Shown in pieces: positions 1 to 21,144 of a DNA stretch of 64,000 nt (positions within the stretch are counted from its first letter, which is position 1; every line of letters begins with the position of its first letter). A program made the translations under genes and the position numbers. The notes under the pieces are model-generated. The model made no database searches. It was not told where the DNA came from and saw only the letters and a list, made by a program, of their open reading frames with translations. Origin of the DNA: Moniliella sp. 'wahieum' (lineage: Eukaryota); the NCBI GenBank assembly GCA_003971905.1, contig RSEE01000004.1, forward strand, positions 248,001-312,000, in the 5' to 3' direction.

Positions 1-680
1 TTCTCAATGCCGTCGAAGAGGGCAAGGCCATCTTTGGCAACATTCAGAACTTCCTTGCTTTCCAGCTTTCCACCTCGATCGCCGCGCTTTTCCTCATCCT
101 CATGTCCATCATGTTCGGTATGGCCTTGCCGCTCAATGCGATGCAAGTTCTTTTGATCAATCTCGCCTGCGATGGTCCGCCCGCCAGTCCTCGGTGTCGA
201 TCCCGCCGACGCATCGTCTTTCGCAAGCCGCCCCGGCCCAAGAACAAGCCTGTGCTCGACAAGCGTGTCTTCTTTGACATTCTCTTTTCCTCTGCCATAT
301 CTTGGGTGGCACGCTGTTTGTCTACCTGCACGAGGCTGCCGTCGACGGCACGCCGGACGAGCGCGACATGGCCATGACGTTTGTCACCTTTGTTTCCCTC
401 GACTTGATCACGGCGGTGCAGTGCCGCGGGCTTCACGTGGGTCTGTTTGCCAACCGGGTAATGACCATCACCCTCTCCGTGTCGTATGTGGTGCTGGGCG
501 CGTTGATCTACTTCCCCCCGCTCCAAGCCATCTTCCAAACCATCCGCTCTCGTTCCCCGACCTGTTGTATGGGCGGGCCTGACCGGCATCACGTTTGCTC
601 TGCACGGCGTGCGCCGCAACCTGCAACGCAAGCGTGAAGCCAGCCTCGACCTCGCGCCATGGGAGGCCCAGGTCGCTTGA
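1..680 (+). CDS. PMR1: P-type Ca2+/Mn2+-transporting ATPase (SPCA/PMR1 family), 3' end only
   Basis: Stitched translation LNAVEEGKAIFGNIQNFLAFQLSTSIAAL...LNAMQVLLINLACDGPPA(Q)SLGVDP...RDMAMTFVTFV...YFPPLQAIFQT...WEAQVA*. FQLSTS and DGPPAQSLGV are SPCA signatures. TGA at 678-680; several indel frameshifts. Confidence 0.9.
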
Positions 681-1818: not shown

Positions 1819-4800
1819 TCAACTTTTACTTGATCGTGCTGCCCGAGGCACCCAAAGATGAAGGCCGCGCTGGAACGGGAGAATGGGAGAAAGGAAGCCC
1901 GAACTCTTGCCCATCGGCTGGGCCAAGTTGAAATCCGATTCGCGCAAGAGGGGGGTCGACTTGCCCGTGGCCAAACCGTACTGGGCGCACGGAAACGCAT
2001 TTGGCGTGCGGGCCAGCCAGCATACACACACCCTGCTTCGGCAATCTCACCTGACGCGACAAGTGTGCTCGTACAGCATCGAATGCGGTTCCATGCTCGC
2101 ACCCGACAAGAGACGCGATCCTGTGCGCAACGCACAGCCGTCACCAATGGTCAATCGGTTAGACTAAACCGACCACGCGAGTTGATGTGGGCCACAACCG
2201 ACGCATCGTCCAGACTGACTTTGTTGCCCATCGTAACCAGCTCTGGTTCGGTGAGTTGCAAACTCGGCTTACCCCCGGCCCAGATAGCACAGTCCTTCCC
2301 GATCGTCGCGCCAAGGAGACGAAGGTAGAGCACAGCGTACCATGTGCCCGAGATGCAGCCCACAATCCGGCCGCCAAAGCCGCGGCCGAGCAGGCGCTGG
2401 AGAGAAAGATGCAACTGCCAGCGCTGGCAGTAGGATGACATGTCCCAATCGTACCGCCCTTCCCGCCGGCGACCAATGATCGCCCACTTGGTCACGATGA
2501 CCCAGCAAAAGCCAACAACGCCTGCGTAGTCATGATGACAATGAAGGCAAGCGCGATATACATACACCAACGCCGGGCGATACCAATGGTCCCCAAACAG
2601 GCCTGGCGCCTTGTGCTCGTAGTTCAACCGCGCCCGGTTCAGAATCACCACCGCAATCGGCGCCGGGGCCCCAGTAGACTGAGCTGAGCGCGGCCATAAA
2701 CACGTTGACCAGAACGATGAGGGGGTAGGGGAAAACAAAGTAAGGTGCTTTACGCTGGTAGAAAGCGCGGCCGAAGGGAGTGATCGTGTCCTCGCTCGGG
2801 GCCGACTTGCCAAAGCTGACCGGCTCGCCATGCTTAGCCCCCATCCAGACTGACAACGGCTCATAGTACCCGTTCCTGCGGGACAAGGCACCAGAGCCCA
2901 TGACCGCTTGTCGATCCACCGTTGTGCCGGGCAACAGAGTTACACGGTCAGCGATCATCGCCCCCGAGGCAATGGAGATTCGGTTAAATCCAATCGAGTC
3001 GGAGGTGAAAAGCTCCGAGCGCGAGCCAAACACTACATCGTCTCCAACACGAAGTAGCTCCGGGTCGGGGCAGTAGATACCGGAACCAGGCCAGTAGACC
3101 CTCCGACCTACCTGGGCGCCCATCGCACGATAAATGACCGAGGTCATCTCGTAGTGGGTACCAATAATGGCAAACCCGCCGCAGCTGAGGCTGGGAGAGC
3201 AGTTCCGTGCACATCCACCTGCGGAACAAAGCCCATTGGCTTGCATTGCGCATGGAGCCCTCCTGGTTGCGCCCAAGGAAAAGGCGCTTAACGAGAATGC
3301 CAAGGATCATGTTTGAGAGGGGGCATACAGTTTCGGACGATTCGGGCGACAAAGTGCCACCCAATACGCTGCGGATACGCAAACCATGAGACGACACCCT
3401 TAACCGAGTCGGTCTTGTTGAACAAAAACGGCTGCGACAACAGCATAAAGAGCGCGGCAAACCAAGGGATGTAGAAGGAAATGATCCCGTATTTGATAGG
3501 GAGACCGAGGCAAACAATGAGGAAAATGTTGGGTTGGGGAACCTCGCCCTTGTTGTACGCCGCAAACCCATCTGCCGAAGGTTCCTCGTGCGAGGAGGCC
3601 TGCGGCCCCCAAACTGTACCATCTGCTAAGTAGGCACCCGGGGCGATCTGGGTGAATGTGTTGACAATCGTGTGTCGCCAATCACCACAGGTTCAAGACG
3701 GAAGTAACAGTCACGCTCGACAGCAAAACCGCGAACCACACTTCGGTCGATTCGGGCCCCGTCGTGGATTGTGAGCAGGTCGTACTCTCCCAGTCTGGCG
3801 AACTTGTCGATTTTGACATCGTTTCCAATACGCGCGCCGAGGAGGCGGTAGTATGCAATGCGGAGCGACGGGGTAAGATTGAATAACCCCTTGCCCGACA
3901 TTGCAGTGATTGATGCACAATCCACCAGCGCAGGTGGTAATTGCACCACATGGGGTACTTCCCTGGGCGATATCGACCAATTACGACCCATTTGAACATG
4001 ATGGCAGCAACAGGACAAATGATACGAGAAGTGAGGCGGGCGGCAACAAGGAAGGCAAGCAGGACTCCGACCCGCTCCCAAAGTTGTCCGAAATGTAGTA
4101 GGCTGAGAAAGCAAGGCCTTGTAGGATCACAGTCCATGTCCAGGCTGCCTTGAGAGGGTACATGAACATAAGGGGAAGAATCTGGACGAAGAGTACCCAA
4201 GGATGGGTTTGACTGCGGGGCTTGTACCCGTGTGAGTGGAGGTAATCAGGAATATCCCCATCCTCTCGTACCATGGGCTGGGGAGCGGAGGAATCCATTT
4301 TTCTCGTCGAAGTACCCACTCGCCATATACTCATCGTCATCCGAGCCTAGCTGCTCGTCAACCAGACCAGCGATGCCGATGATGTCGAGTTGGTGAATAC
4401 AGAAGCGACCTCCAAGCTCGCCCCCGTCTCCTTTTTGATGGAATGGATCAGACGGCCGAGAAGGAGCGAATTCCCCCAAAAGGAAAAAGTCGGAGTCGGC
4501 TGTAATGGCTCCAGAATCCATATTGAGAAGCTTGGCCACACAGTCCCGAACAGTTTGTGTCGAACGAGACATATCAGCTGCGTGTTGGGCGCGTACCTCT
4601 TCAGTCATTGTGCAAAGTCGAAACGGCCATCGCGGGTTCGAGCAAGGCGTTGGCGGAAGACGTGCAATGGGTTGGGGACAATGTATCCATCCAGCACCCC
4701 AGCTAAGGCACCGTCAATATCGCGGCATCGTACTCGGCATCCTCGTCAATATGGAGGAAGGCTTCTGGGGATCCATCTGGCCGCATCTGCACGGCCACCT

Positions 4801-6682
4801 CTTGCACTCCGGGAATGCGCGCGCAGGCCCGTTCGATGGAACTGAGGTCTACGCGCACTTTGCGGCAAGGGATGGGGGTGCTCAGCGGAGCATTTTTGTC
4901 AGGCGCTCTGGCCTCGAAGTGACGGTCCATAAGAAGTATCGTCAGCGAGAGGCTTGATGCCTAGCCGTTGACCGAGCTTGATACGGAGCGGTTACCCGCC
5001 TGATTCTTGGGCAATTCGTCCATGTACACAATGGCAACGGCCATTGGATGGGTGCAATGCGTTGCGTAGCGTATTTTGGAGTTCCATCAACCCGATCCTT
5101 GGCTGGTTAGGTGGGGACTACCACCACGCCAATAGTCTCTTGCAAAACCTTGTGATCAATCGAAAATGCAAGAGTTGCCTTAACCCGGTCGCGCACATGG
5201 GCTGTGATGGCCTCTTCGATCTCAAAGGGAGAGATGACTTCGCCACCTTTATTGATGATCTCTTTCGACCTAGACGTGACATAGAGGAAGCCATCGGCGT
5301 CCATGTGGCCTACGTCGCCAGTGTCGAACCAACCAGAGCGGGTGAAGCAGGATTGGTCGAGCTTCCCCGGCGCCACCTCGTATCCGTCAAATGTCGGTAG
5401 CCCTCGGACACAAATGGCGCCATCGACGCCAATTGGCAGTGGTTTCTCCAATGTACGAGGATCGCGAATCGACAAGTCCGGGCCACAGGCTATGCCCGAG
5501 CACCCGGGCCGCTCAGTTGGTATGTAACGGAGGGGGAAGCAATGGGCATGCACTCAGTCATGCCATACGAGGGCAGAATGGCACAGCGAAACGTATCCCG
5601 CATCTGGGTTGCAAGCGATGGAAGAAGGCCACCGGCAGCGTTGCAAATCATCTTGATCTTGATGTCGCGCGCGACATTGATCTCATTGGGCTTGGAGGCA
5701 AGAATGGCCTGGTGCATTGTCGGAGCAGCATAGTACCAAGTGGCACCGAGCTTGCGGACCAACGTCCACCACGAGGTAGCATCAAAGCCTGAGCACATGA
5801 TGGCGCTGCCGCATGAAAAAAGTGGAGCCCACAGATTGCGGATAATGCCGCCTACATGGAAGAGGGGCATCATGTTCACTGGACATATGGGGGTTAATGA
5901 ACGATGGACTTTAGGGTCAGGGTATGGAGGGGGACATACTGTTAACTGACTCAGGCTTAAGCTGCCAGGAGTCCACAACGCAACAAGTGCCGACGATCAG
6001 ATGGCGTAGCGTGTAGGGTACGACCTTTTTGGTGCCGGATGTGCCGGATGTGTGCAGGACAAGGGCCACGTCCTGTAGGCCGTTGGGCTGTAAGCGAGCG
6101 TGGCGGCGCGTCGAACGCGGCGCGGAGATGTTGTCGCCGTCGAGGACAGCCATGTCAAAGAGACCGGCTGGGCCAGAGAGGCGAAAATCGACAAAAATCA
6201 CCTCGAGCCCATCGCGGGCATAGCAAGACCAAAGATCAAGGCGTTCGATAGCATCGCGGGTGGTGACTATGGCACGGGCACGCAGGCGACGGGCATCGTC
6301 GCGCAGCTCCTGCGACGTGCAGGCCGCGTTGACGGGAGCAGCGGTATAGTAGGCGGAGATGGCCATGAGTGCCACCGCATTCTCCGGACCAGTGGGCAGG
6401 GCAACCATAACACGGTCGTTGCGGGCAAGGGGGGAGGCGCGGGGCGAGACGGGGAGCTGGAAGGCGGTGATGACGGAGCGGAGCATGTTGTGGTCGAGTG
6501 GGGGGGGTGGAGGTCGGGGGACCAGAGAGCGGGGCGGGGACTGGTGCAGAGACAGTCGAGGAGGGTGGAGATGCGGCCATTGTCGGTAACGTGAGCTGCC
6601 ACATGGTCGCCGAGGGAGGTGGTGGGCGCGGGGGGGGCAGATGGCCCAGCATCGAGAGCGGGTATGCGCCCGAGGACGCCAT
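1819..6682 (-). CDS. NRPS-like membrane polymer synthetase: adenylation domain + carrier (T) domain + three Pls/PosA-type TM/beta-helix C-terminal modules
   Basis: A-domain motifs: LVLHTSGTSGTKKVVP, NMMPLFHVGG, TWYYAAPTMH, ILPSYGMTEC, WFDTGDVG, SRSKEIINKGGEVISPFEIE, ELPKNQAGK. T domain: DSDFFLLG(G)NSLLLGRL, Ser codon 4467-4469. Three modules of the type KWxxIGR...YRxxGAxIG...EP(D/E)LxxxG, ending YAGWPA. Intron 5879-5939 (GTATGT..CATTAAC..CAG). ATG at 6682 (MASSGAYP); 3' end approximate. Confidence 0.88.
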
Positions 6683-8143
6683 CGCAGCCGAGGGCGGGGA
6701 GGGGGAGGGGGGAGGAGGAGGAGGAGGAGGGGAGGACAAGCGCAAGCGAAGGGCAAGGCAAGGGGGCGTGCGCGGGGAGGTGGTGCTGGGCGGGGGCTAG
6801 AAGCGAGCGGTGGCTTATGCTGGCCAGCGCCCAGCGCAGGGCCAGCAGCATCCAGCGTCGAGCAGCCACCCTCGATCAGCGGTCGCATCCATCATGCCTG
6901 CTCCCGCCTGCCCAGCGCTCGGGCTGCTCTGGCGCTGCGCTGCGGCACTGCCGCCCTGCCAGGCACACCGCATCTGCCGTCCAGCGGGGCTCCAGTGCCA
7001 GCCAACACCGCCCCCCTGCCGCCGCACGCGTGGCGGGATCGCCCCTCGCCCGCCACCAGTACGCTGCTGCTGTGCCTCGTGCTGCGCTGCTGTGCCTGGT
7101 GCAGGGCGCGGGGCGCCTGCCAGCCGAGCGCACACAGGCGCTGTCCAGGCGATCGCACGGCCATCGGGACTCCGGGTGGCAACGCAGCACACCTGGGCAG
7201 TGTCGCAGGTCGCGCCCGAACGCTCCAGGCGATCGCTGCTGCGCACTGCGTACTGCTGGGCGTTGGCGAGCCACTCGCGGAGGTCGAAGGCCCATCGGCT
7301 GCTGGTCACCGGTCACCGGTCACCAGTCACCGTCACCAAGGCCAGCCCAGCGACTAGCGACCCCAATTGAGGCACACCATCGGCAACATGCGTGCTCGGT
7401 GCGTACTGAGTACTGACGTACTGAAGATTGAATTGGTCATGCATGCCCCATAATCGATAATCGATAGTCATGCACATGGAAAACCTCATGCAGTCTAGTA
7501 TAACACTTGTTATTTTCTCGGCTTCATCATATCCCACTCATTTGTCCTCATTTCCTCCATTTCTGGCGCCAATTTTTGTTTGAAAGCTGGTACTTACAAT
7601 GGAAAAGCAGTAATGGGGCAGATGTTGGATACGCTGATACCCTGTTTTGCAAACGACTAAGGGCGCGAAAACGCGAAAGGCCCATAGATATTCAAACCGT
7701 TTGCCCCACCTCCGCGATACTAATTGATAGTATTAGGGACTAAAAGGACATCGATAGATCTTAGTCGTTTTGTAGCAGATCATTGATTGAACTAGTGACT
7801 ACAGTGACTATAGAGCCTGATGTCTAGGTGACTATTGCAGTTATTCAGGCACCAATTCTTGAGCCTCTTTCTCTCCCCCTACTCTTCCTTACATGCCGCG
7901 GGCGCCTTGCACCCGACGCCTTCTAGCGCCGTCGCCGGTCATCCGCCGTTCCTAGGAGGGTGCTCCAAATCCGAACTCCGAAAACTGTTCCCCTACCCTT
8001 CTATTCGCCCTTACACTTGCGTTTTGATGTGCGTGTCAGAAGAATGCTCCACATCATGATGCTCACTGAGCCGGGATTCCCATGTAATATTCCGCGGTAA
8101 TTCTGTGCCCCTCCGTGGTATTCCGTAGCTTGGATTCCGTGGC

Positions 8144-8453: not shown

Positions 8454-9917
8454 GTGGAGACTTCAAGCACCAGAAGCTGGGGTACTCTGCATCACCTTGT
8501 CTTTATCACGCCCCGGCCCGACTTGGTCATCCGATGCGCTTTGTGCGTGCCTTCTCCTCATCCGCAAGGGCGAGTAACGGTACGGAGCGCACTGATCGAT
8601 GAGATCCTGTCGCGCGCACACCTACTACTCTCTGTGTGCCTGCAGAGCTTGAGCAAGCGGTGTACACGTACAACCAGAAGCTCAACGCCACCTTGCCGTC
8701 CCGCTCGTCAAGGACTTCTATTTCAAGCCTGGTTCTTCAGCCGAGCTCGCCTACCTCAAGGCCGAGGCCGAGCGCATTAAGGTTGACTTCACTTCTATCC
8801 TTAGTTGCGGGGACTTGAATGTTGCCTCAGCCGCTGTCACATCTACGGCTGAGGGCTCTGCCGACGGCTCTGGTTTGGCCGATAATCCTACTGTGTCCAA
8901 CCCTGTAGAGTCGGTGATGGACACCAGCACCCAGAGATCGGAAGAAGGGCTGATGCTGCTTCGATTGATTCGTATATTACCTTGCAATCGCGTTGGACAG
9001 ATGCAGATGAGAAGAACGATCAGACGTCGCTCACCGTGCAGGCGACCGGACTTTGTACTTGCTGGTTAACTCCGAAGATACCGGCAAATCATGAAGGTTT
9101 CCCTCAGACAGTGTAGACCTAACCACCAAAAGATCGAGTCGGTTCCGGACAAGAGCGAGGATGCTGCCGAGGACGCGATCGCATGGAGAAGTGACGCTAG
9201 CAACAGATTCTCTTCATGCTGCTGCCCCTCGCGCCGTGACCAAGGTTTTGGGCGAGACGATTGACGTATGGTTACTGAACAACTTACCCGTGGGCCACTT
9301 GACCGACCATGGAAAGGTGTGTTGAACAAGGCTGATCGAATGTGGAATGCTAACATTTCGTTCGCTCCAGATCTACTTCTTGGCCGGCCACGTGATTGCG
9401 GGCAATGCGGACAGAGATTGTGCGCAAGGCGGGCACAAAGTACGCATGGCTTAAACGCGAAGAAATTGAGCAACTCTTGACAACGGAGACGGAACGAGCG
9501 AGGACAAGGACTACTATGATAACATTGCCCACCTACTCAACGAATAGACCCATTCCACTTCCTTGCACGCATCATCGCACAGCTTCCACTTATCCACATG
9601 CTGGACATCGATCTAGCGATGGTCAACACAAGCCTCAGCAGCATAACCCGCTGGTTCCGCACGCCTGGCACTTACGAACAGCAGGCTTCAATGATTAATG
9701 ACCGGTCAGGTGATCGGTGAACGCGCTTCATGCACCCACGGCATGTTCTTCTCGACGTGAGCCTACATTGCAACCTTGTTTGAGGACATCTCCCATGGGT
9801 TGCATGCGTTCCAAGGGCAACGCCTATAATTCCAGATGGTTGGACGACGAGACTCTACCGCATGTCCATAGATTTGACCCCTACAAGGGTAGGCATGCAA
9901 TTTTATTTTGTGCATAG
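8454..9917 (+). CDS. Hypothetical protein or gene relic
   Basis: Protein-like segments across frames ([61 protein letters not shown]) and a plausible intron ~9317-9370 (GTGTGT..GCTAAC..CCAG). No domain recognised; ends uncertain. Confidence 0.35.
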
Positions 9918-10113
9918 GGCAGGCACAGAACCATCGCTCGAGCCGAGAAGCCCGCGCGACCAAGATCCGTCCAGGGGGTAAGGACCAGTGGGTACCTTAA
10001 CAGAGGGGTGGGCCGTATGGCCCTCAAATGGCGTTGAGAAGGAAAAAGAGCAGATTCTCGAACAACTCGGAAGAAGAAAAGCGGAGCGAGCAGGGCGATA
10101 CATCCCAGCCGAA

Positions 10114-10732
10114 TTAACGGTTGCTCTTGGCCACACGCTCAAGCTCATCCTTCTTCTAATGGCGTACGAGTTGGACGAACCCTTGGCGGCGTTGATCAGC
10201 TCGTCAGCAAGGCATTCCGAGATCGACTTGACGTTGCGGAAAGCCGACTCGCGAGTGCCAATAGTCAGGAGAGAGATCGCCTGGTTAACACGGCGAAGAG
10301 GGGACACGTCCACGGCCTGGCGGCGGACAGTACCACCCGAGCCAATGCGGGTCGAGTCCTCACGGGGGCCCGTGTTGATGATGGCGTCAACCAAGACCTG
10401 AATCGGGTTCTGGTCGGTAAGGAGCGAGATGATCTCGAACGCGTGGGCAACGATGCGGACAGCCATGAGCTTCTTGCCGTTGTTGCGGCCGTTCATCATC
10501 AGAGCATCAACGAGACGCTCAACAATGGCATCGAAGCCTTCTTGAACGCCTTGGAAGCGTACCGGCCAGCCGTGTGAGGAACGTAGACGGCGTTGCGGAG
10601 CGAGATGTAGTCCTGCAGCGACAGGTCCTTCACCTCGACGTCTTGCACGTCATACTTGCCGAAAAGCAGGACAGCGCCCTTAGGGGCGGCAACAGCCGCG
10701 GCCTCCTTGGGGATGGTTTGCACGGTCGCCAT
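10114..10732 (-). CDS. RPS5: 40S ribosomal protein S5 (uS7)
   Basis: MATVQTIP...[17 protein letters not shown]...[24 protein letters not shown]...[34 protein letters not shown]...[16 protein letters not shown] at 10114-10116; intronless. Confidence 0.98.
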
Positions 10733-11129
10733 CTTGATACTACTGGTTCGGGTAAAAAAGTACTGGAGTCAGTTCTTTGCTCTCCATCTTTTGGGCAGCG
10801 CAGAGAGTGAGGAGACCACGCCGCTCAACATCTGGCACCGCCGGCACCCTCGACAGGACGACTCACCTTGCTTGGCAGGACCGTCAAAGGTAGTTGTGTC
10901 GCGTTTGCATTAGCCACAAGCGAACCAGGGCCACCAGGTGGGACGCGCCAGAGATATGGAAATTCCGCCGAGCCGCAGCACTCTGGATTGACACTGGCTC
11001 CAAGCCGTATGTATTTTGATAAATTCAGTCGGGTATAACCCTAGTGTTCCCTGCGCTCCATGCGAGATTTGCCTGTCTTGATCGGCTTGACGAGACCACC
11101 TGTACCCACCTCTCCCAAGCCCTCTCAAG

Positions 11130-11400
11130 ATGGAAGCCGTTTCGAAGCAACCCGTTAAGCTGGCCAAGGTTACCAAGGTTCTCGGCCGCACTGGCTCGCG
11201 CGGTGGCGTGATCCAGGTGCGTGTTGAGTTCATGGACGACTCGACCCGCTCCATCATCCGCAATGTCAAGGGGCCCGTCAAGGTGGACGACATTCTTGCC
11301 CTCCTCGAGTCGGAGCGTGAGGCTCGGTATGTAGCCTGCTGCCTGCTCGCTTTGGATACGCTGGACTGACACCCTTGTTATTTACAGTCGCCTGCGCTAA
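11130..11400 (+). CDS. RPS28: 40S ribosomal protein S28 (eS28)
   Basis: [66 protein letters not shown]. Intron 11327-11387 (GTATGT..CTGAC..CAG) completes ...ARRLR*. Confidence 0.98.
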
Positions 11401-11814: not shown

Positions 11815-14071
11815 TCAAAGCAAGCCTTGAACGATAGTGAGTTGCTCCTCTGACATGCAAAATAGCGCCCGCCCTACTTTGGTTTCGGAGCCGGCCTGGA
11901 TAGGAGCAAACTCAACCACGTCCAACAGCTGGCCCGCATCCTCATGACCCAACGCCATCACCCGAGCTTCACCCACAGTACCAGGGTGGCCATCAGTGGT
12001 GGCGGGCGCCGTGTACATGAACAATGTTCCTGCGCCACGTGTTCCACCCAGCGGCGCGGCAGGAGGGGAAACAAAGGCGAGAGCAACCGCTCGGCTCGCC
12101 ATCGGTCGCACTGGCTGCCTCGTCTGCAGGCGGGCGGGAAGTAAGTGTGGTGTAGCAGAATTTAGCGTCTTTCTTGCTGGCCAACACGTAGGCTAACCCA
12201 GGCAGGTGGCCTACATGTTTCGGTTGGCCAGGTCCCATAGCGAATGCCGCCCCGTCTAGACCTTGGGCGATGGTCAAACTTGGGCACTGGGTATGCGTGC
12301 TCGTCCCTCTGTGATGGAAATGAGGCACGCCCAGGAATGGTTAGGGCCAGCATTGTCTCTTCATCGCTGTAGGAGAGCGTGGGAGGGGTAGCAGGAGCAA
12401 AGTGGGTCACTTTGGCCACTTGCAGAGGTCGGCCCACATTCGCATCCTCTTCTTCGAGGGTCGTGAGTAACGTTGACTGCGTGGGAGGCAGACCGGGTGT
12501 AGGAATGGGAGCCTCATCCAACTCGTCCGAGGTGTACTTTCCAGTGCTTCGAGTGCGTTGAGCAAATCGGATGGGCTGAGCGTCTCAAGAACATCGTCAG
12601 ACAACTTACTCTGTCGTGACTGTGGATCGGCAAAGAGCTGCGTCCACCGAGTGCCTTCCTCCTTCTTAGCAATGAAGAGAGTCAAGGCACAATACTCGCC
12701 CTGTTCCTGACGGCGGGCCCGCTGTTCCCATTGCCATCTACTCTTCTCAACATCGATTGGAGCCCAAAGTTTGTGGTTAGTATACCGCCCTTGCTGCAGC
12801 TCCGTAGCAAGCATTGTCTCCCAAGGCTGGGCAAGACTTCCTCCTGGGGAAAGTTGAACCATCTTGGGTCCCACATCTGCAGTCGTGCTGACTGATAACG
12901 ACAGACTTGAGGGAGAGGTAAAATTGACGGAAATAACCTCTTGTTTCAACGTTGGCGGGAGGGAGAACGCAACGGACACTGTTTCCGACGTTTGGGCCCA
13001 GGTATAGGCAGGCTGGGATGGGTGTTGGGTAGCTCGCACTGTCGTCGGTCCCGCCCCCAAACCTGTATGGGGCATTGGAGGGTAGTATGGGGCGCTGTCG
13101 AGCGTGGGGGATTTGTAGAGCTGGTATTTGCCAGCGGAGAGAAGGTACCACGAGATAGGATCATCGAGTGGACCAGGAATCTCGATGGCTTGGTAAAGTG
13201 GGTCAGTGCCGCGAAGAATCCACAGCACCTCAAAGTCTTCCCCATAGCGGGCATTGAGGTAGCGCTCGTCAGGAGAGGGCAGGCGCAAACGGACCAGAGC
13301 GATGTTGAATTCGGTAGTGCGTCCACTGGGCCGATCCTTCCGATTCCTTACCCGGCACAAATGTTGACTGGACCAGGAATAAAGCTTGAGTCCTGCTGGA
13401 GTCGGCAAAACGGGCCGAGAGAAGGGATGCAACTTTCCCAAACCGGGAGAAATGGTGGAGTGGGGTACTCAGCTACAGGCGAGCTGAGCCAGCGCTCGTA
13501 CCTGACCAGGGCATTGGTCTCGGCCTCATGGGCCTTCAAAAGTTTGATGGTACTATCTTCAGCACCATCGTGGACAAGCCAGAGGTGGGCACCTAGGCTG
13601 GCGGCACTGGGGAGCTGCGAGGGGGAGTTGATAGAGATGCGGTGGATGGGGTGGGTGAGGGGGGTGAGCAGCCCTGTGTCGGGGGCAATGGATATAACCA
13701 TAAGAACAACAAAGCCCTTGGCGTCAATGTAGAGCAAGTGGTCTGCCTCATCCCGGCTGGGGATGAGAAAACGGTGCAAGAGACGAGCCTGGAGCTGCTT
13801 GAGCGACATGGATGCCGCTGCCTGTTCCTCTGGGTCCAAGCGTGGGAGGGGGGATGGAAGGGGCCAGCTGGACTGAGAAATTGTGCCATTGCGCAGAACC
13901 GCAAGTGGGCGAGGAGCACGACCAGCACCGTCGCCTGTTACGCTGGTGGTATCTTCGTCGTTCCCAACGAGGCGGTACGTGTCAAAGGCGGGCTGGTAGC
14001 GAGAAGGGCTGCGCTCAAAGGAGAGCCCGGGCGTTGGGGGAGGGCGGAGAGGCAGAGTCGGCGGCAGACAT
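11815..14071 (-). CDS. NudC domain-containing protein 1 (NudCD1-like, CS domain)
   Basis: N-terminal YQPAFDTYRL; CS domain YTWAQTSETVSVAFSLP...LWAPIDVEKSRWQW...LTLFIAKKEEGTRWTQLF; then VLETLSPSDLLNALEALEKYTS, EEEDANVG, FPGLAYV-like LPGLAYVLASKKD. Confidence 0.78.
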
Positions 14072-19449: not shown

Positions 19450-21144
19450 TTAGCCGTTGAGGTACTTGGTTTGCCCGATGGCCGCCCTTGCGTGGCCTCT
19501 GGCGAAGGACCATAATGTTGCCACCCGGTCTGTAGGGCGACGTACGCCCACCACGGGCAAGATTACCCCACCGATCCTTGGACTGGTGGTTACCCTTGGA
19601 TTTACCACGGCCCCCCGTTCGGGTGGTCGCAGTGGTTCATTGCCACACCACGAACCTTAGGACGACGGCCGAGCCAGCGGGCACGACCAGCCTTACCCAG
19701 CTTGCGGTGCTGCCAATTGGTGTTGCTCACACGGCCAATTGTTGCCGCACCATTGACCGGCACCATACGTACTTCACCACTCTGCATCTTGATGACTGCG
19801 TGCGTGGCAGTAGGCTTGTCTGCCATAGCAAGGGCGGCTTCCTTACCACCCAAGAGCTTCTCCAGTTGCTTCTCGCGAGGCAAGAGAGCGTTCTCCTCCG
19901 CATTACCAGGCAGCAGCTCGGGACGCGGGATGGGCGTACCTTTCTCCGTCAACTCACCCATGAGCGGGCCAGGGGGGCACCAGTTTTACGGTGCATAAAG
20001 CCCACCAGCTGACCGCAGGAACCAGCAGAACGAATGAGCTTACCCTTACCCTTGGCCGCAATGGTCACATTGTGGATCTCGGTACCGATAGGGATGAGCG
20101 ACAGAGGCAAACAGTTACCCGGGCGCAAACGCCTGCATACGGAACATACCCAGGTCGAGCGGGGCCTTGGCAATCTCCTCTTCAGTGAAACGCGTGTTAT
20201 CCATCTCGGGGTTGCGGAAGGTCGAGACACCGTCGCGACGGTAAGAGCGAACCGTGTCGCCAGCACGAGACCATCGGCCGCAACGATGTACGAAACGAAC
20301 TTGGTCTCCCGGTTCTCAATCAGTGCAACGTGGGACGAACGACCAGGATCATACTCGATGGTAAGCGTCCTGAACACCGGGCTCCCAACGGGAAAAGTCC
20401 ACGAGACGAATACGTTGCTTGTGGCCACCACCAATACCACGCGTGGCGATCCGCCATTTCTGAACGACCACCCGACTTGCGCAGCGCAACCGTCAGGCCT
20501 ACTCGGGCTCACCACGGAAGAGGTAAGGGTTGTACAGCAGACGGGTATGGCGAATACCGGGTGTGATAGGCTTGAAAGTCTTGAAAGCACCATCGACACG
20601 AAACGTAGGGTGTTTGGATCCGGGTTTTGAGTCCCAGACGGGAGGCCAGTTGGGCCTCTTTCTTGGCTTCCTTAACAGCACGCATCATCCTCTTGCGCTC
20701 CAGGACGCACGCGTCTAGGCACCAGAGTCGACTGGGAGCGGGGGAATTGTGACCAAAGTTGTATGTGCCAGACTCGCGGCTCGAGGGCCAAATGTTGTTG
20801 TCGGCAAGACCGACAAGAGTCTTGTTAGGCTTTCCAACACGGTGGGAACCGTCGGCCAGAAACGAGAACGCAACGGAATGAAACACTTGAAGCGTGCCTC
20901 AACCAGAGCATGGTTGCGCATGACGGGCGGATCGGGAAGCTGGCCCCAAGGCTGGTACGCCTCGTGGATCTCAAGCCGCCCGCCATCGTCGGTGCGATCA
21001 CTGACGGGAACTGGCGCAAGTGATGCAAGCCCGCGACGGGCATGGGCTAAACTGGCGCTTATGGTCGGCACGCGACCGGCAGCCGGGCGCACAGGCAACG
21101 CATAGTGAGCGGTGGGCTGCAAGGCGAAGGGGAAGCGAGGTCAT
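19450..21144 (-). CDS. RML2: Mitochondrial ribosomal protein uL2m (L2)
   Basis: [109 protein letters not shown]. Arg/Ser/Ala-rich presequence-like start [13 protein letters not shown]. Ends approximate. Confidence 0.95.

Follow-up and report, generated by a model that had tools for sequence, protein, structure and literature searches.

A gene of the polymalate-synthetase type in the basidiomycete Moniliella sp. 'wahieum' and its candidate role as a polyester synthase

We describe a gene in a 64,000-nt stretch of contig RSEE01000004.1 of Moniliella sp. 'wahieum' (positions 248,001 to 312,000), referred to below as the window, in whose positions all coordinates are given. The gene lies on the minus strand and encodes a membrane protein of about 1,580 residues, in which an adenylation (A) domain and a carrier (T) domain precede three tandem units, each made of two membrane helices and a beta-helix module. 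On every feature that we compared, namely domain order, end-to-end homology and the signature of the acyl pocket, the sequence fits the polymalate (PMA)-synthetase-type family, a known but poorly characterised kind of enzyme. We hold with moderate confidence that the product is a single functional membrane enzyme that would act as a thiotemplate homopolymerase of a non-amino carboxylic acid, most likely L-malate.

Gene structure and domain architecture

The protein is encoded in two exons, and its pieces are found in stop-to-stop open reading frames (ORFs) over all three frames of the minus strand, between about 1,800 and 6,700. The gene was therefore traced with a dynamic programming aligner that compares DNA with protein and allows frame shifts and GT-AG introns. 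With P0029, a Tilletia laevis homologue of 1,585 residues, as the main guide, the window DNA aligns end to end from 6673 to 1968 over 1,529 matched codons, with 71% identity and without any in-frame stop codon, and six further guide proteins gave the same picture. The A part and the membrane part are a single gene, which settles the possibility, raised in the preliminary description of this DNA, that they might be separate ones. The start codon is the ATG at 6682-6680 (MASSGAYPLSML...), in agreement with the N-termini of the homologues and with the end coordinate proposed earlier. The 3' end lies between about 1990 and 1826 and cannot be fixed further because of indels, the TAA at 1828-1826 being one candidate only. 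The sole intron ends at 5879 in all seven guide alignments. Its donor was put at 5935 or 5946 by the aligner, and we place it at 5939 because splicing there restores the reading ...ESVN-M-NMMPLFHVGG. The features are as follows, from the 5' end of the gene.

1826-6682, minus: whole gene of the A-T enzyme with three units of two membrane helices and a beta-helix, about 1,580 residues (frameshift-aware alignment to P0029 and six other homologues)
4977-6501, minus: adenylation (ANL) domain, oxalyl-/malonyl-CoA-synthetase class (Pfam AMP-binding, NCBIfam acyl-CoA ligases, PDB matches)
6031-6057, minus: P-loop TSGTSGTKK (guide alignment)
5879-5939, minus: sole intron, 61 nt, GTATGT...CCAG, phase 1 (sequence reading and guide alignments)
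5847-5867, minus: PLFHVGG, at the site of the FDxS motif of nonribosomal peptide synthetases (NRPS), without Asp; Gly at the position of AAE3 His216
5628-5645, minus: NAAGGL, with Ala-Ala for AAE3 Cys288-Ser289
5544-5567, minus: YGMTECMP, with Ala313 changed to Gly, Met314 kept and His319 changed to Pro
4989-4996, minus: position of the A10 catalytic Lys (AGKPLR), its codon broken (AA- at 4993-4992)
4366-4551, minus: carrier (T, PP-binding) domain, FFLL(G)GNSLL (alignment; PF00550 in homologues)
3994-4217, minus: membrane helices 1 and 2 (homologue hydropathy, model, mapping)
3582-3942, minus: first beta-helix (C-like) module (TIGR02353 and Hexapep matches, model)
3272-3527, minus: membrane helices 3 and 4 (homologue hydropathy, model, mapping)
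2791-3174, minus: second beta-helix module (TIGR02353; PF00132 in homologues; model)
2496-2742, minus: membrane helices 5 and 6 (homologue hydropathy, model, mapping)
2007-2486, minus: third beta-helix module, with AHINSRG at 2192-2172 and its His codon at 2189-2187

This domain order in one polypeptide, without condensation (C), thioesterase (TE) or reductase (R) domains, had been proposed from the letters of the sequence and is confirmed by domain scans, hydropathy and an AlphaFold2 model. Among the ORF pieces of the window, Pfam AMP-binding is matched with E values of 2e-12 and 1e-18, together with one weak match to Hexapep. NCBIfam adds acyl-CoA ligases, the FadD7 type being best, and TIGR02353, the 'Pls/PosA family', matches four C-terminal pieces weakly at 25-38 bits. 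Full-length homologues match PF00501, PF00550 and PF00132, and reach E values of 2e-51 and 1e-58 with TIGR02353. No Condensation, Thioesterase or reductase family was reported in the Pfam and NCBIfam scans of the window pieces and of two full-length homologues.

Kyte-Doolittle hydropathy of the homologues gives six hydrophobic helices as three pairs, with a hexapeptide region after each pair. The same arrangement is seen in an AlphaFold2 model of the C-terminal 915 residues of the Hortaea homologue P0277, built from a 66-sequence alignment (mean predicted local distance difference test score 84.9, predicted template modelling score 0.84), where each of three units consists of two long helices and then a beta-helix. 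A Foldseek comparison of this model with the PDB returned eight matches at E <=1e-3, the best at 3.2e-4, and these are hexapeptide acyltransferases and gamma-carbonic-anhydrase-like proteins only. A sequence search of the PDB with the C-terminal half gave marginal matches to hexapeptide proteins (best E 0.0017), and no Pls-like membrane structure was found in the PDB by either search. In the ESM Atlas the C-terminal part met only unnamed Hexapep clusters from diatoms and Pseudomonadota, which are uninformative.

Each soluble module shares the left-handed beta-helix fold of galactoside and maltose O-acetyltransferases and of serine acetyltransferase (Foldseek E 3e-4 to 5e-3, target-normalised TM score up to 0.61, with weak sequence matches). 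Those enzymes are soluble, trimeric and CoA-dependent, whereas the window enzyme has three divergent copies in one chain, tethered to membrane hairpins and predicted to be fed by a carrier domain. The His, Asn and Gly of the AHINSRG motif in the third module are invariant in all 66 aligned family members, and this His (H832 of the model sequence) is the sole invariant His of the C-terminal half.

Besides the intron, the gene contains 23 frame breaks in 4.7 kb, or about 4.9 per kb. They look like indel errors of the assembly, since domains of neighbouring genes are split too, the conserved columns are kept and in-frame stops are lacking. In the neighbouring ATPase gene (window 3-634, plus strand), positions 2-64 and 61-148 of Cation_ATPase_C lie in two overlapping frames; in RPL2 (19605-20671, minus strand), Ribosomal_L2_C is divided between two ORFs that share 19952-19985, one with its positions 2-43 and the other with 43-110; and in the ORF at 9906-10649 (minus strand) the match to the uS7 (RPS5) domain ends at profile position 138 of 148, missing the C-terminal end. 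The split neighbour domains point to assembly-wide indels. Of the 280 columns that are at least 90% conserved among the 66 family members, the window protein keeps 268. Six others are substituted, none of them invariant, and a further six have no aligned codon, five of these lying at frame breaks and one being the start Met. Among invariant columns 89 of 91 are kept, and the remaining two, which have no aligned codon, are the start Met and the A10 Lys, whose codon is broken at 4992-4993. Another break falls inside the GG(N)S motif of the T domain, at 4476 in a G/A run, and the Ser codon TCG at 4469-4467 is intact in the present assembly, so that a missing carrier Ser, which had been named as a possible objection, is not found.

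This number of breaks would also be expected of a decaying pseudogene in which they are real. We consider this very unlikely, given the lack of in-frame stops, the 268 conserved columns, the absence of any substituted invariant residue, and the neighbouring ATPase, RPL2 and uS7 (RPS5) matches, which are likewise split or cut short. One result speaks less clearly for assembly errors: the breaks are only modestly associated with homopolymer runs (mean longest nearby run 3.09 versus 2.69 for random positions, a value reached in 3.4% of random draws), so that the main support for assembly errors comes from the neighbours and from the pattern of conservation.

The adenylation domain and its acyl pocket

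The best relatives of the A domain in the PDB are oxalyl-CoA synthetases, those of Lathyrus (6qjz, E 2e-50) and Arabidopsis (AAE3, 5ie0, 5e-45), followed by yeast PCS60 (8aff, 4e-40) and then by malonyl-CoA synthetases, as against 1e-16 for the best chain that is named an amino-acid adenylation domain (6ulw). Oxalyl-CoA synthetases were again best when the search was repeated with the A-domain fragment P0014. By sequence, the domain is of the acyl-CoA-synthetase class, in line with the preliminary description, which had likened it to oxalate-CoA ligase and PCS60. The motifs cited there, PLFHVGG, TWYYAAPTMH and YGMTE, are all present, and there is no Asp at the FDxS position. In amino-acid-activating A domains it is the Asp of FDxS that binds the amino group.

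The window protein has PLFHV-G, TWYxAxPT, Y-MTE and the A10 Lys position in common with AtAAE3 (5ie0-5ie3), LsOCS (6qjz) and PCS60 (8aff). These three are stand-alone CoA ligases of about 514-543 residues, whereas the window A domain is fused to a T domain and a membrane part of about 780 residues, and its acceptor would be the fused carrier domain. They also differ in the pocket. In the available text of PMC8905533, the oxalate pocket of AAE3 is formed by Val215-His216, Cys288-Ser289, Ala313-Met314, His319 and Lys500, with Ser289 and His319 contacting oxalate and being conserved in oxalyl-CoA synthetases only. We took these eight positions and the gate His214 (positions 214, 215, 216, 288, 289, 313, 314, 319 and 500 of AAE3), read them in the printed PDB alignments and transferred them to the family by hidden Markov model alignment.

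PMA-synthetase-type family: H V G A A G M P K
AAE3 and PCS60: H V H C S A M H K
MatB: H T H G S G M N K

The window's own piece reads HVGAAGMP, the ninth position being the Lys codon at the frame break. His216, Cys288, Ser289, Ala313 and His319 are all replaced, and among these are both oxalate-specific residues (Ser289 to Ala, His319 to Pro). Four positions have smaller side chains, which gives an enlarged pocket. The malonyl-CoA synthetase MatB (4fuq, 3nyq), the next-best solved relative, is a stand-alone enzyme that shares the Gly at the Ala313 position (YGMTE) and differs in the rest of its signature as listed. The signature HVGAAGMPK is identical in Aureobasidium (P0373), Hortaea, Fusarium, Malassezia, Tilletia and Gloeophyllum, and it occurs in 200 of 241 proteins of 1,400-1,900 residues; the other 41 comprise partial alignments and single substitutions, with five oxalate-like pockets among them. 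A non-amino, non-oxalate acid as the substrate is strengthened by the Ala and Pro at positions 289 and 319 together with the identity of the signature to that of the Aureobasidium homologue. The earlier proposal that a non-amino acid is activated is, as a hypothesis, supported by this identity and by the class of the domain.

The best structural matches, and database names such as 'Oxalate--CoA ligase' or 'peroxisomal-coenzyme A synthetase' for several members, could also be taken to mean that the enzyme activates oxalate and uses its membrane modules either for the oxalylation of an acceptor or for the export of oxalate. The changed pocket makes this very improbable, above all the loss of both oxalate-contacting residues. 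Moreover, oxalate has no hydroxyl, so that a homopolymer could not be formed from it. Oxalate-like pockets also occur in a separate sequence group that lacks the membrane module. In a tree of A domains, built from the 120 of 158 sequences that had at least 380 aligned positions, the HxGAAGMPK-type pockets form one group that contains every sequence with a Pls-like C-terminal module. Pockets of the HIH(C/S)S type mark the other group, which is devoid of such a module save for one 21-bit match.

As a side observation on this second group, four of five members that we scanned (P0224, P0238, P0245, P0219, P0252) are A-T-TE, NRPS or mixed polyketide synthase-NRPS proteins, and the fifth is a dinoflagellate transcript with AMP-binding domains only. 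Judging from the sequences, members of the group may charge carrier domains with oxalate or a close analogue.

The layout of the protein recalls the Pls/PosA family, to which the Streptomyces epsilon-poly-L-lysine synthetase belongs. Pls has six membrane helices around three tandem soluble domains, and in the window protein, too, A and T domains precede three tandem soluble modules with paired membrane helices between them and without a C or TE domain. The C-terminal half is, by sequence, a distant relative of the Pls/PosA terminal domain. The Pls architecture named in the preliminary description holds in this respect (layout, six helices, three soluble domains) and fails in two others, the TIGR02353 score and the type of A domain. 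A synthetase of a poly-amino acid, epsilon-polylysine or similar, would account for the common architecture and for the significant TIGR02353 similarity, and we regard it as extremely improbable. The scores of P0029 (175.2 bits) and P0373 (199 bits) lie below the curated Pls/PosA cut-off of 423.1 bits. PLFHVGG stands where the A domain of Pls would be expected to have the amino-group-binding Asp, and on the window pieces the amino-acid adenylation model TIGR01733 gets no further than E 1e-4 to 5e-4, where the best acyl-CoA ligase models give 4e-9 to 4e-21 on the three A-domain pieces. The distance in the PDB search between 6ulw and the best oxalyl-CoA synthetase is of the same kind. The product of the window enzyme would be ester-linked, whereas that of Pls is amide-linked.

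The link to polymalate and the proposed mechanism

The reading that we prefer, a homopolymerase most likely of L-malate, leans on the Aureobasidium members of the family. The primary report of PMAs, in A. melanogenum ATCC 62921, is that of Wang et al. (2020). According to the available portions of PMC11286673 and PMC9210645, the PMAs gene is 5,049 bp long and encodes an NRPS-like protein with A-like, T and C-like domains, six membrane helices and no thioesterase, and its deletion abolishes polymalate with no growth defect. The available text of PMC11905612 gives the accession as QHD40385.1 and places an orthologue in an antiSMASH cluster of the class 'NRPS-like', separate from a 'NAPAA' cluster. 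The window protein has the same parts. Aureobasidium family members are 1,685-1,690 residues long (1,688 in the A. melanogenum homologue P0411), which fits a gene of 5,049 bp, and 'NRPS-like' is also the label that annotators give to family members in other fungi. From length, architecture and antiSMASH class, we consider it highly probable that the Aureobasidium homologue is the published PMAs. The window protein aligns with the A. pullulans protein P0373 end to end (44.6% identity, 1,522 matched codons, P0373 residues 47-1678) and has an identical pocket. It differs from PMAs in belonging to another phylum, with about 45% identity to P0373, in lying among housekeeping genes, and in that polymalate is not known from basidiomycetes of this type.

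We suggest the following mechanism, in which malate as the substrate is deduced from orthology to the Aureobasidium polymalate synthetase. A cytosolic A domain of the acyl-CoA-synthetase class would adenylate a non-amino acid larger than oxalate, most likely L-malate. This would be a hydroxy-dicarboxylic acid, activated at the C4 carboxyl of L-malate in the case of a beta-linked polymalate. The acid would then be loaded as a thioester on the phosphopantetheine arm at the Ser of the adjacent carrier domain, and three cytosolic acyltransferase-like beta-helix modules, each anchored by a two-helix membrane hairpin, would pass the acyl group on to a hydroxyl, either that of a free monomer or that of the chain being built. 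His acts as the general base in hexapeptide O-acyltransferases, and the invariant His of the third module (AHINSRG) is proposed as the catalytic residue in the same role. Because an even number of helices precedes each soluble module, all catalytic parts are predicted to lie on the cytosolic side. The polyanionic polyester would leave through the six-helix bundle, with no need for a thioesterase. Ester formation, topology and export are all inferred. Dependence on a carrier is supported at the level of the family, since a phosphopantetheinyl transferase gene adjoins the homologue in all three Novosphingobium loci described below.

Several points weigh against this proposal. The identity of the Aureobasidium homologue with PMAs is itself deduced from length, architecture and antiSMASH class, and among the listed Aureobasidium cluster members none carries the accession QHD40385.1 or the name PMAs. 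The supplement of PMC11905612 has no match to g3625 or QHD40385 and only a line for the separate NAPAA cluster, and the available text of PMC10751350 and PMC9647333 contains nothing on the PMAs sequence. Support for PMAs is genetic only, the enzyme not having been isolated, and complementation restores about one third of production, as far as the available text of PMC9210645 goes. For basidiomycete members of the family no assay is known. The enlarged pocket, with four smaller residues and the change of His to Pro, would suit acids besides malate. Of the profiles that the preliminary description had put forward, AMP-binding is matched by the gene and TIGR02353 is present below its cut-off, and PP-binding is found in homologues only, since PF00550 is not matched by the T-domain pieces of the window alone. 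Finally, the family occurs in very many fungi and in bacteria that are not known to make polymalate, and bacteria that do not make the polymer themselves may still have polymalate hydrolases (PMC9210645, in its available text). Either polymalate has been overlooked, then, or the product of the family differs.

How wide the family is can be seen from full-length homologues of 1,500-1,750 residues. They are found in Agaricomycetes (Trametes, Mycena, Gloeophyllum and others), Ustilaginomycotina (Tilletia, Malassezia, Thecaphora, Violaceomyces, Ceraceosorus), many Pezizomycotina (Hortaea, Aureobasidium, Fusarium, Verticillium, Metarhizium, Erysiphe, lichen fungi), chytrids (Polychytrium, Nowakowskiella, Geranomyces) and protist transcriptomes. 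Physarum polycephalum and Penicillium cyclopium are further known producers of polymalate; among ten family representatives that were looked up for a Physarum homologue, a dinoflagellate label was the single species name present. The window protein is closest to Ustilaginomycotina, with 69-71% identity to Tilletia, Thecaphora, Violaceomyces, Ceraceosorus and Parajaminaea and 66% to Malassezia, compared with 60% to Gloeophyllum and 44.6% to Aureobasidium. Orthologues span Basidiomycota and the remaining fungi, so that the rarity suggested in the preliminary description was overstated. By its sequence, the gene is an ordinary conserved member of the family and no special feature of Moniliella sp. 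'wahieum'. A separate observation concerns Agaricales copies, in which the third beta-helix module is followed by a RING finger at the C-terminus (residues 1575-1616 of the Hypsizygus protein P0056, and many Mycena); there is no sign of it in the aligned part of the window gene.

A scan of bacterial genomes gave nine loci with homologues, from which we examined seven full-length genes encoding 1,472-1,588 residues (three from Novosphingobium, two from Myxococcota and two from Planctomycetota). Six of the seven align to the Tilletia protein in one segment with about 32% identity, and the remaining one, a Myxococcota gene (L003), aligns in separate segments with 32-39%. All seven have the pocket H-V/A/S-G-A-A-G-M-P-K, three being identical to HVGAAGMPK and four differing at position 2 only. 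The GGxS carrier motif is present in all seven and the AH-N-RG motif of the third module in five, and the TIGR02353 scores are 166-189 bits.

The Novosphingobium genes lie in the following loci.

L002, 803-14053: Novosphingobium locus
L007, 1044-13526: Novosphingobium locus
L009, 794-13465: Novosphingobium locus

In each of the three, a protein of 880-898 residues with the database name TonB-dependent receptor is encoded upstream of the homologue on the same strand, and an Sfp/HetI-type phosphopantetheinyl transferase gene lies directly downstream. A ferritin-like gene, a second TonB receptor, and PepSY_TM or CDF/MerR genes are nearby. This context suggests metal uptake. It is not common to the Myxococcota and Planctomycetota loci, whose neighbours encode a secretin-like protein, a BNR/sortilin-like protein, a sulfatase, and an ECF sigma factor with Ser/Thr kinases.

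Taken with the near-universal presence of the family in fungi and its presence in bacteria not known for polymalate, this setting is what could be expected if the same thiotemplate loading served a different chemistry. The acyl group, from malate or another hydroxy- or dicarboxylic acid, would then reach its acceptor, in the membrane, in the cell wall or a small molecule, in one or a few transfers, or a short metal-binding oligo-carboxylate would be made in place of a long polymalate. The presence of an invariant His in only one of the three beta-helix modules, and the housekeeping neighbours of the window gene in place of a biosynthetic cluster, also favour such a reading, which we regard as possible though on balance doubtful. 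Sphingomonads have a great many TonB receptors and the three Novosphingobium loci are relatives of one another, so their shared context may be inherited chance, and the Myxococcota and Planctomycetota loci lack it. In addition, the only genetics at hand, as given in the available sources cited above, ties a family member to polymalate, and the layout of three modules and six helices is that of Pls-type polymerases. We therefore keep the homopolymerase as the preferred reading.

Genomic surroundings and meaning for the family

The neighbours of the gene in the window are housekeeping genes, encoding a P-type ATPase, uS7 (RPS5), RPS28, a CS-domain protein and RPL2, and the surroundings are not a biosynthetic cluster. 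The uS7/RPS5, RPS28e and uL2/RPL2 genes lie within 14 kb upstream of the gene start (9906-11366 and 19605-20671), as does the CS-domain protein gene at 12410-13468. Neither Rfam nor tRNA scanning of the window gave a match. The region 6500-7400, which comprises the 5' end of the gene and the sequence upstream of it, is very GC-rich (64-72% GC in 500-nt windows), with long C-runs and long spurious ORFs on both strands; two frame breaks of the gene lie there in C-runs of 7-8. Small indels are apparently frequent in this assembly, and gene calls in the window require frameshift-tolerant methods. Crz1-type promoter motifs have been reported for PMAs. In the window, GNGGCKCA has 23 matches against 27.7 expected and CAGCCAC has nine against 13.8 expected. 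Neither is enriched, and the single CAGCCAC about 180 nt upstream of the ATG (6863-6869) and the one GAGGCTCA about 1.2 kb upstream are not evidence of such control.

In the open literature, with subscription papers and bioRxiv supplements outside this scope, we found no paper that compares Pls with the polymalate synthetase, describes fungal A-T-Hexapep proteins or notes the pan-fungal and bacterial spread of the family. Its members are annotated as 'acetyl-CoA synthetase-like' or 'NRPS-like', and the common database name 'oxalate--CoA ligase' is probably a misnomer, given the loss of the two residues specific to oxalate. Since the pocket is the same in Novosphingobium, Aureobasidium and the basidiomycete studied here, an adenylation result on any one member would inform all. 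For the window itself the outcome is mostly a tidying up: a real, conserved gene in a noisy assembly, with its chemistry assigned by inference.

If the assignment of the Aureobasidium homologue is true, the capacity for polyesters of the polymalate type would be far wider than the few known producers, which bears on the long-standing question of the polymalate-making enzyme in other organisms. More tentatively, and as a possibility that we rate as rather unlikely, the family may be an ancient machine of bacteria, protists and nearly all fungi that exports a polycarboxylate polyester, polymalate or a relative, with an original role perhaps in metal binding or uptake. If that is so, polymalate-like polymers would be a general, overlooked surface or extracellular product of fungi, and the gene of Moniliella sp. 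'wahieum' would be the basidiomycete copy of an ancient polyester machine.

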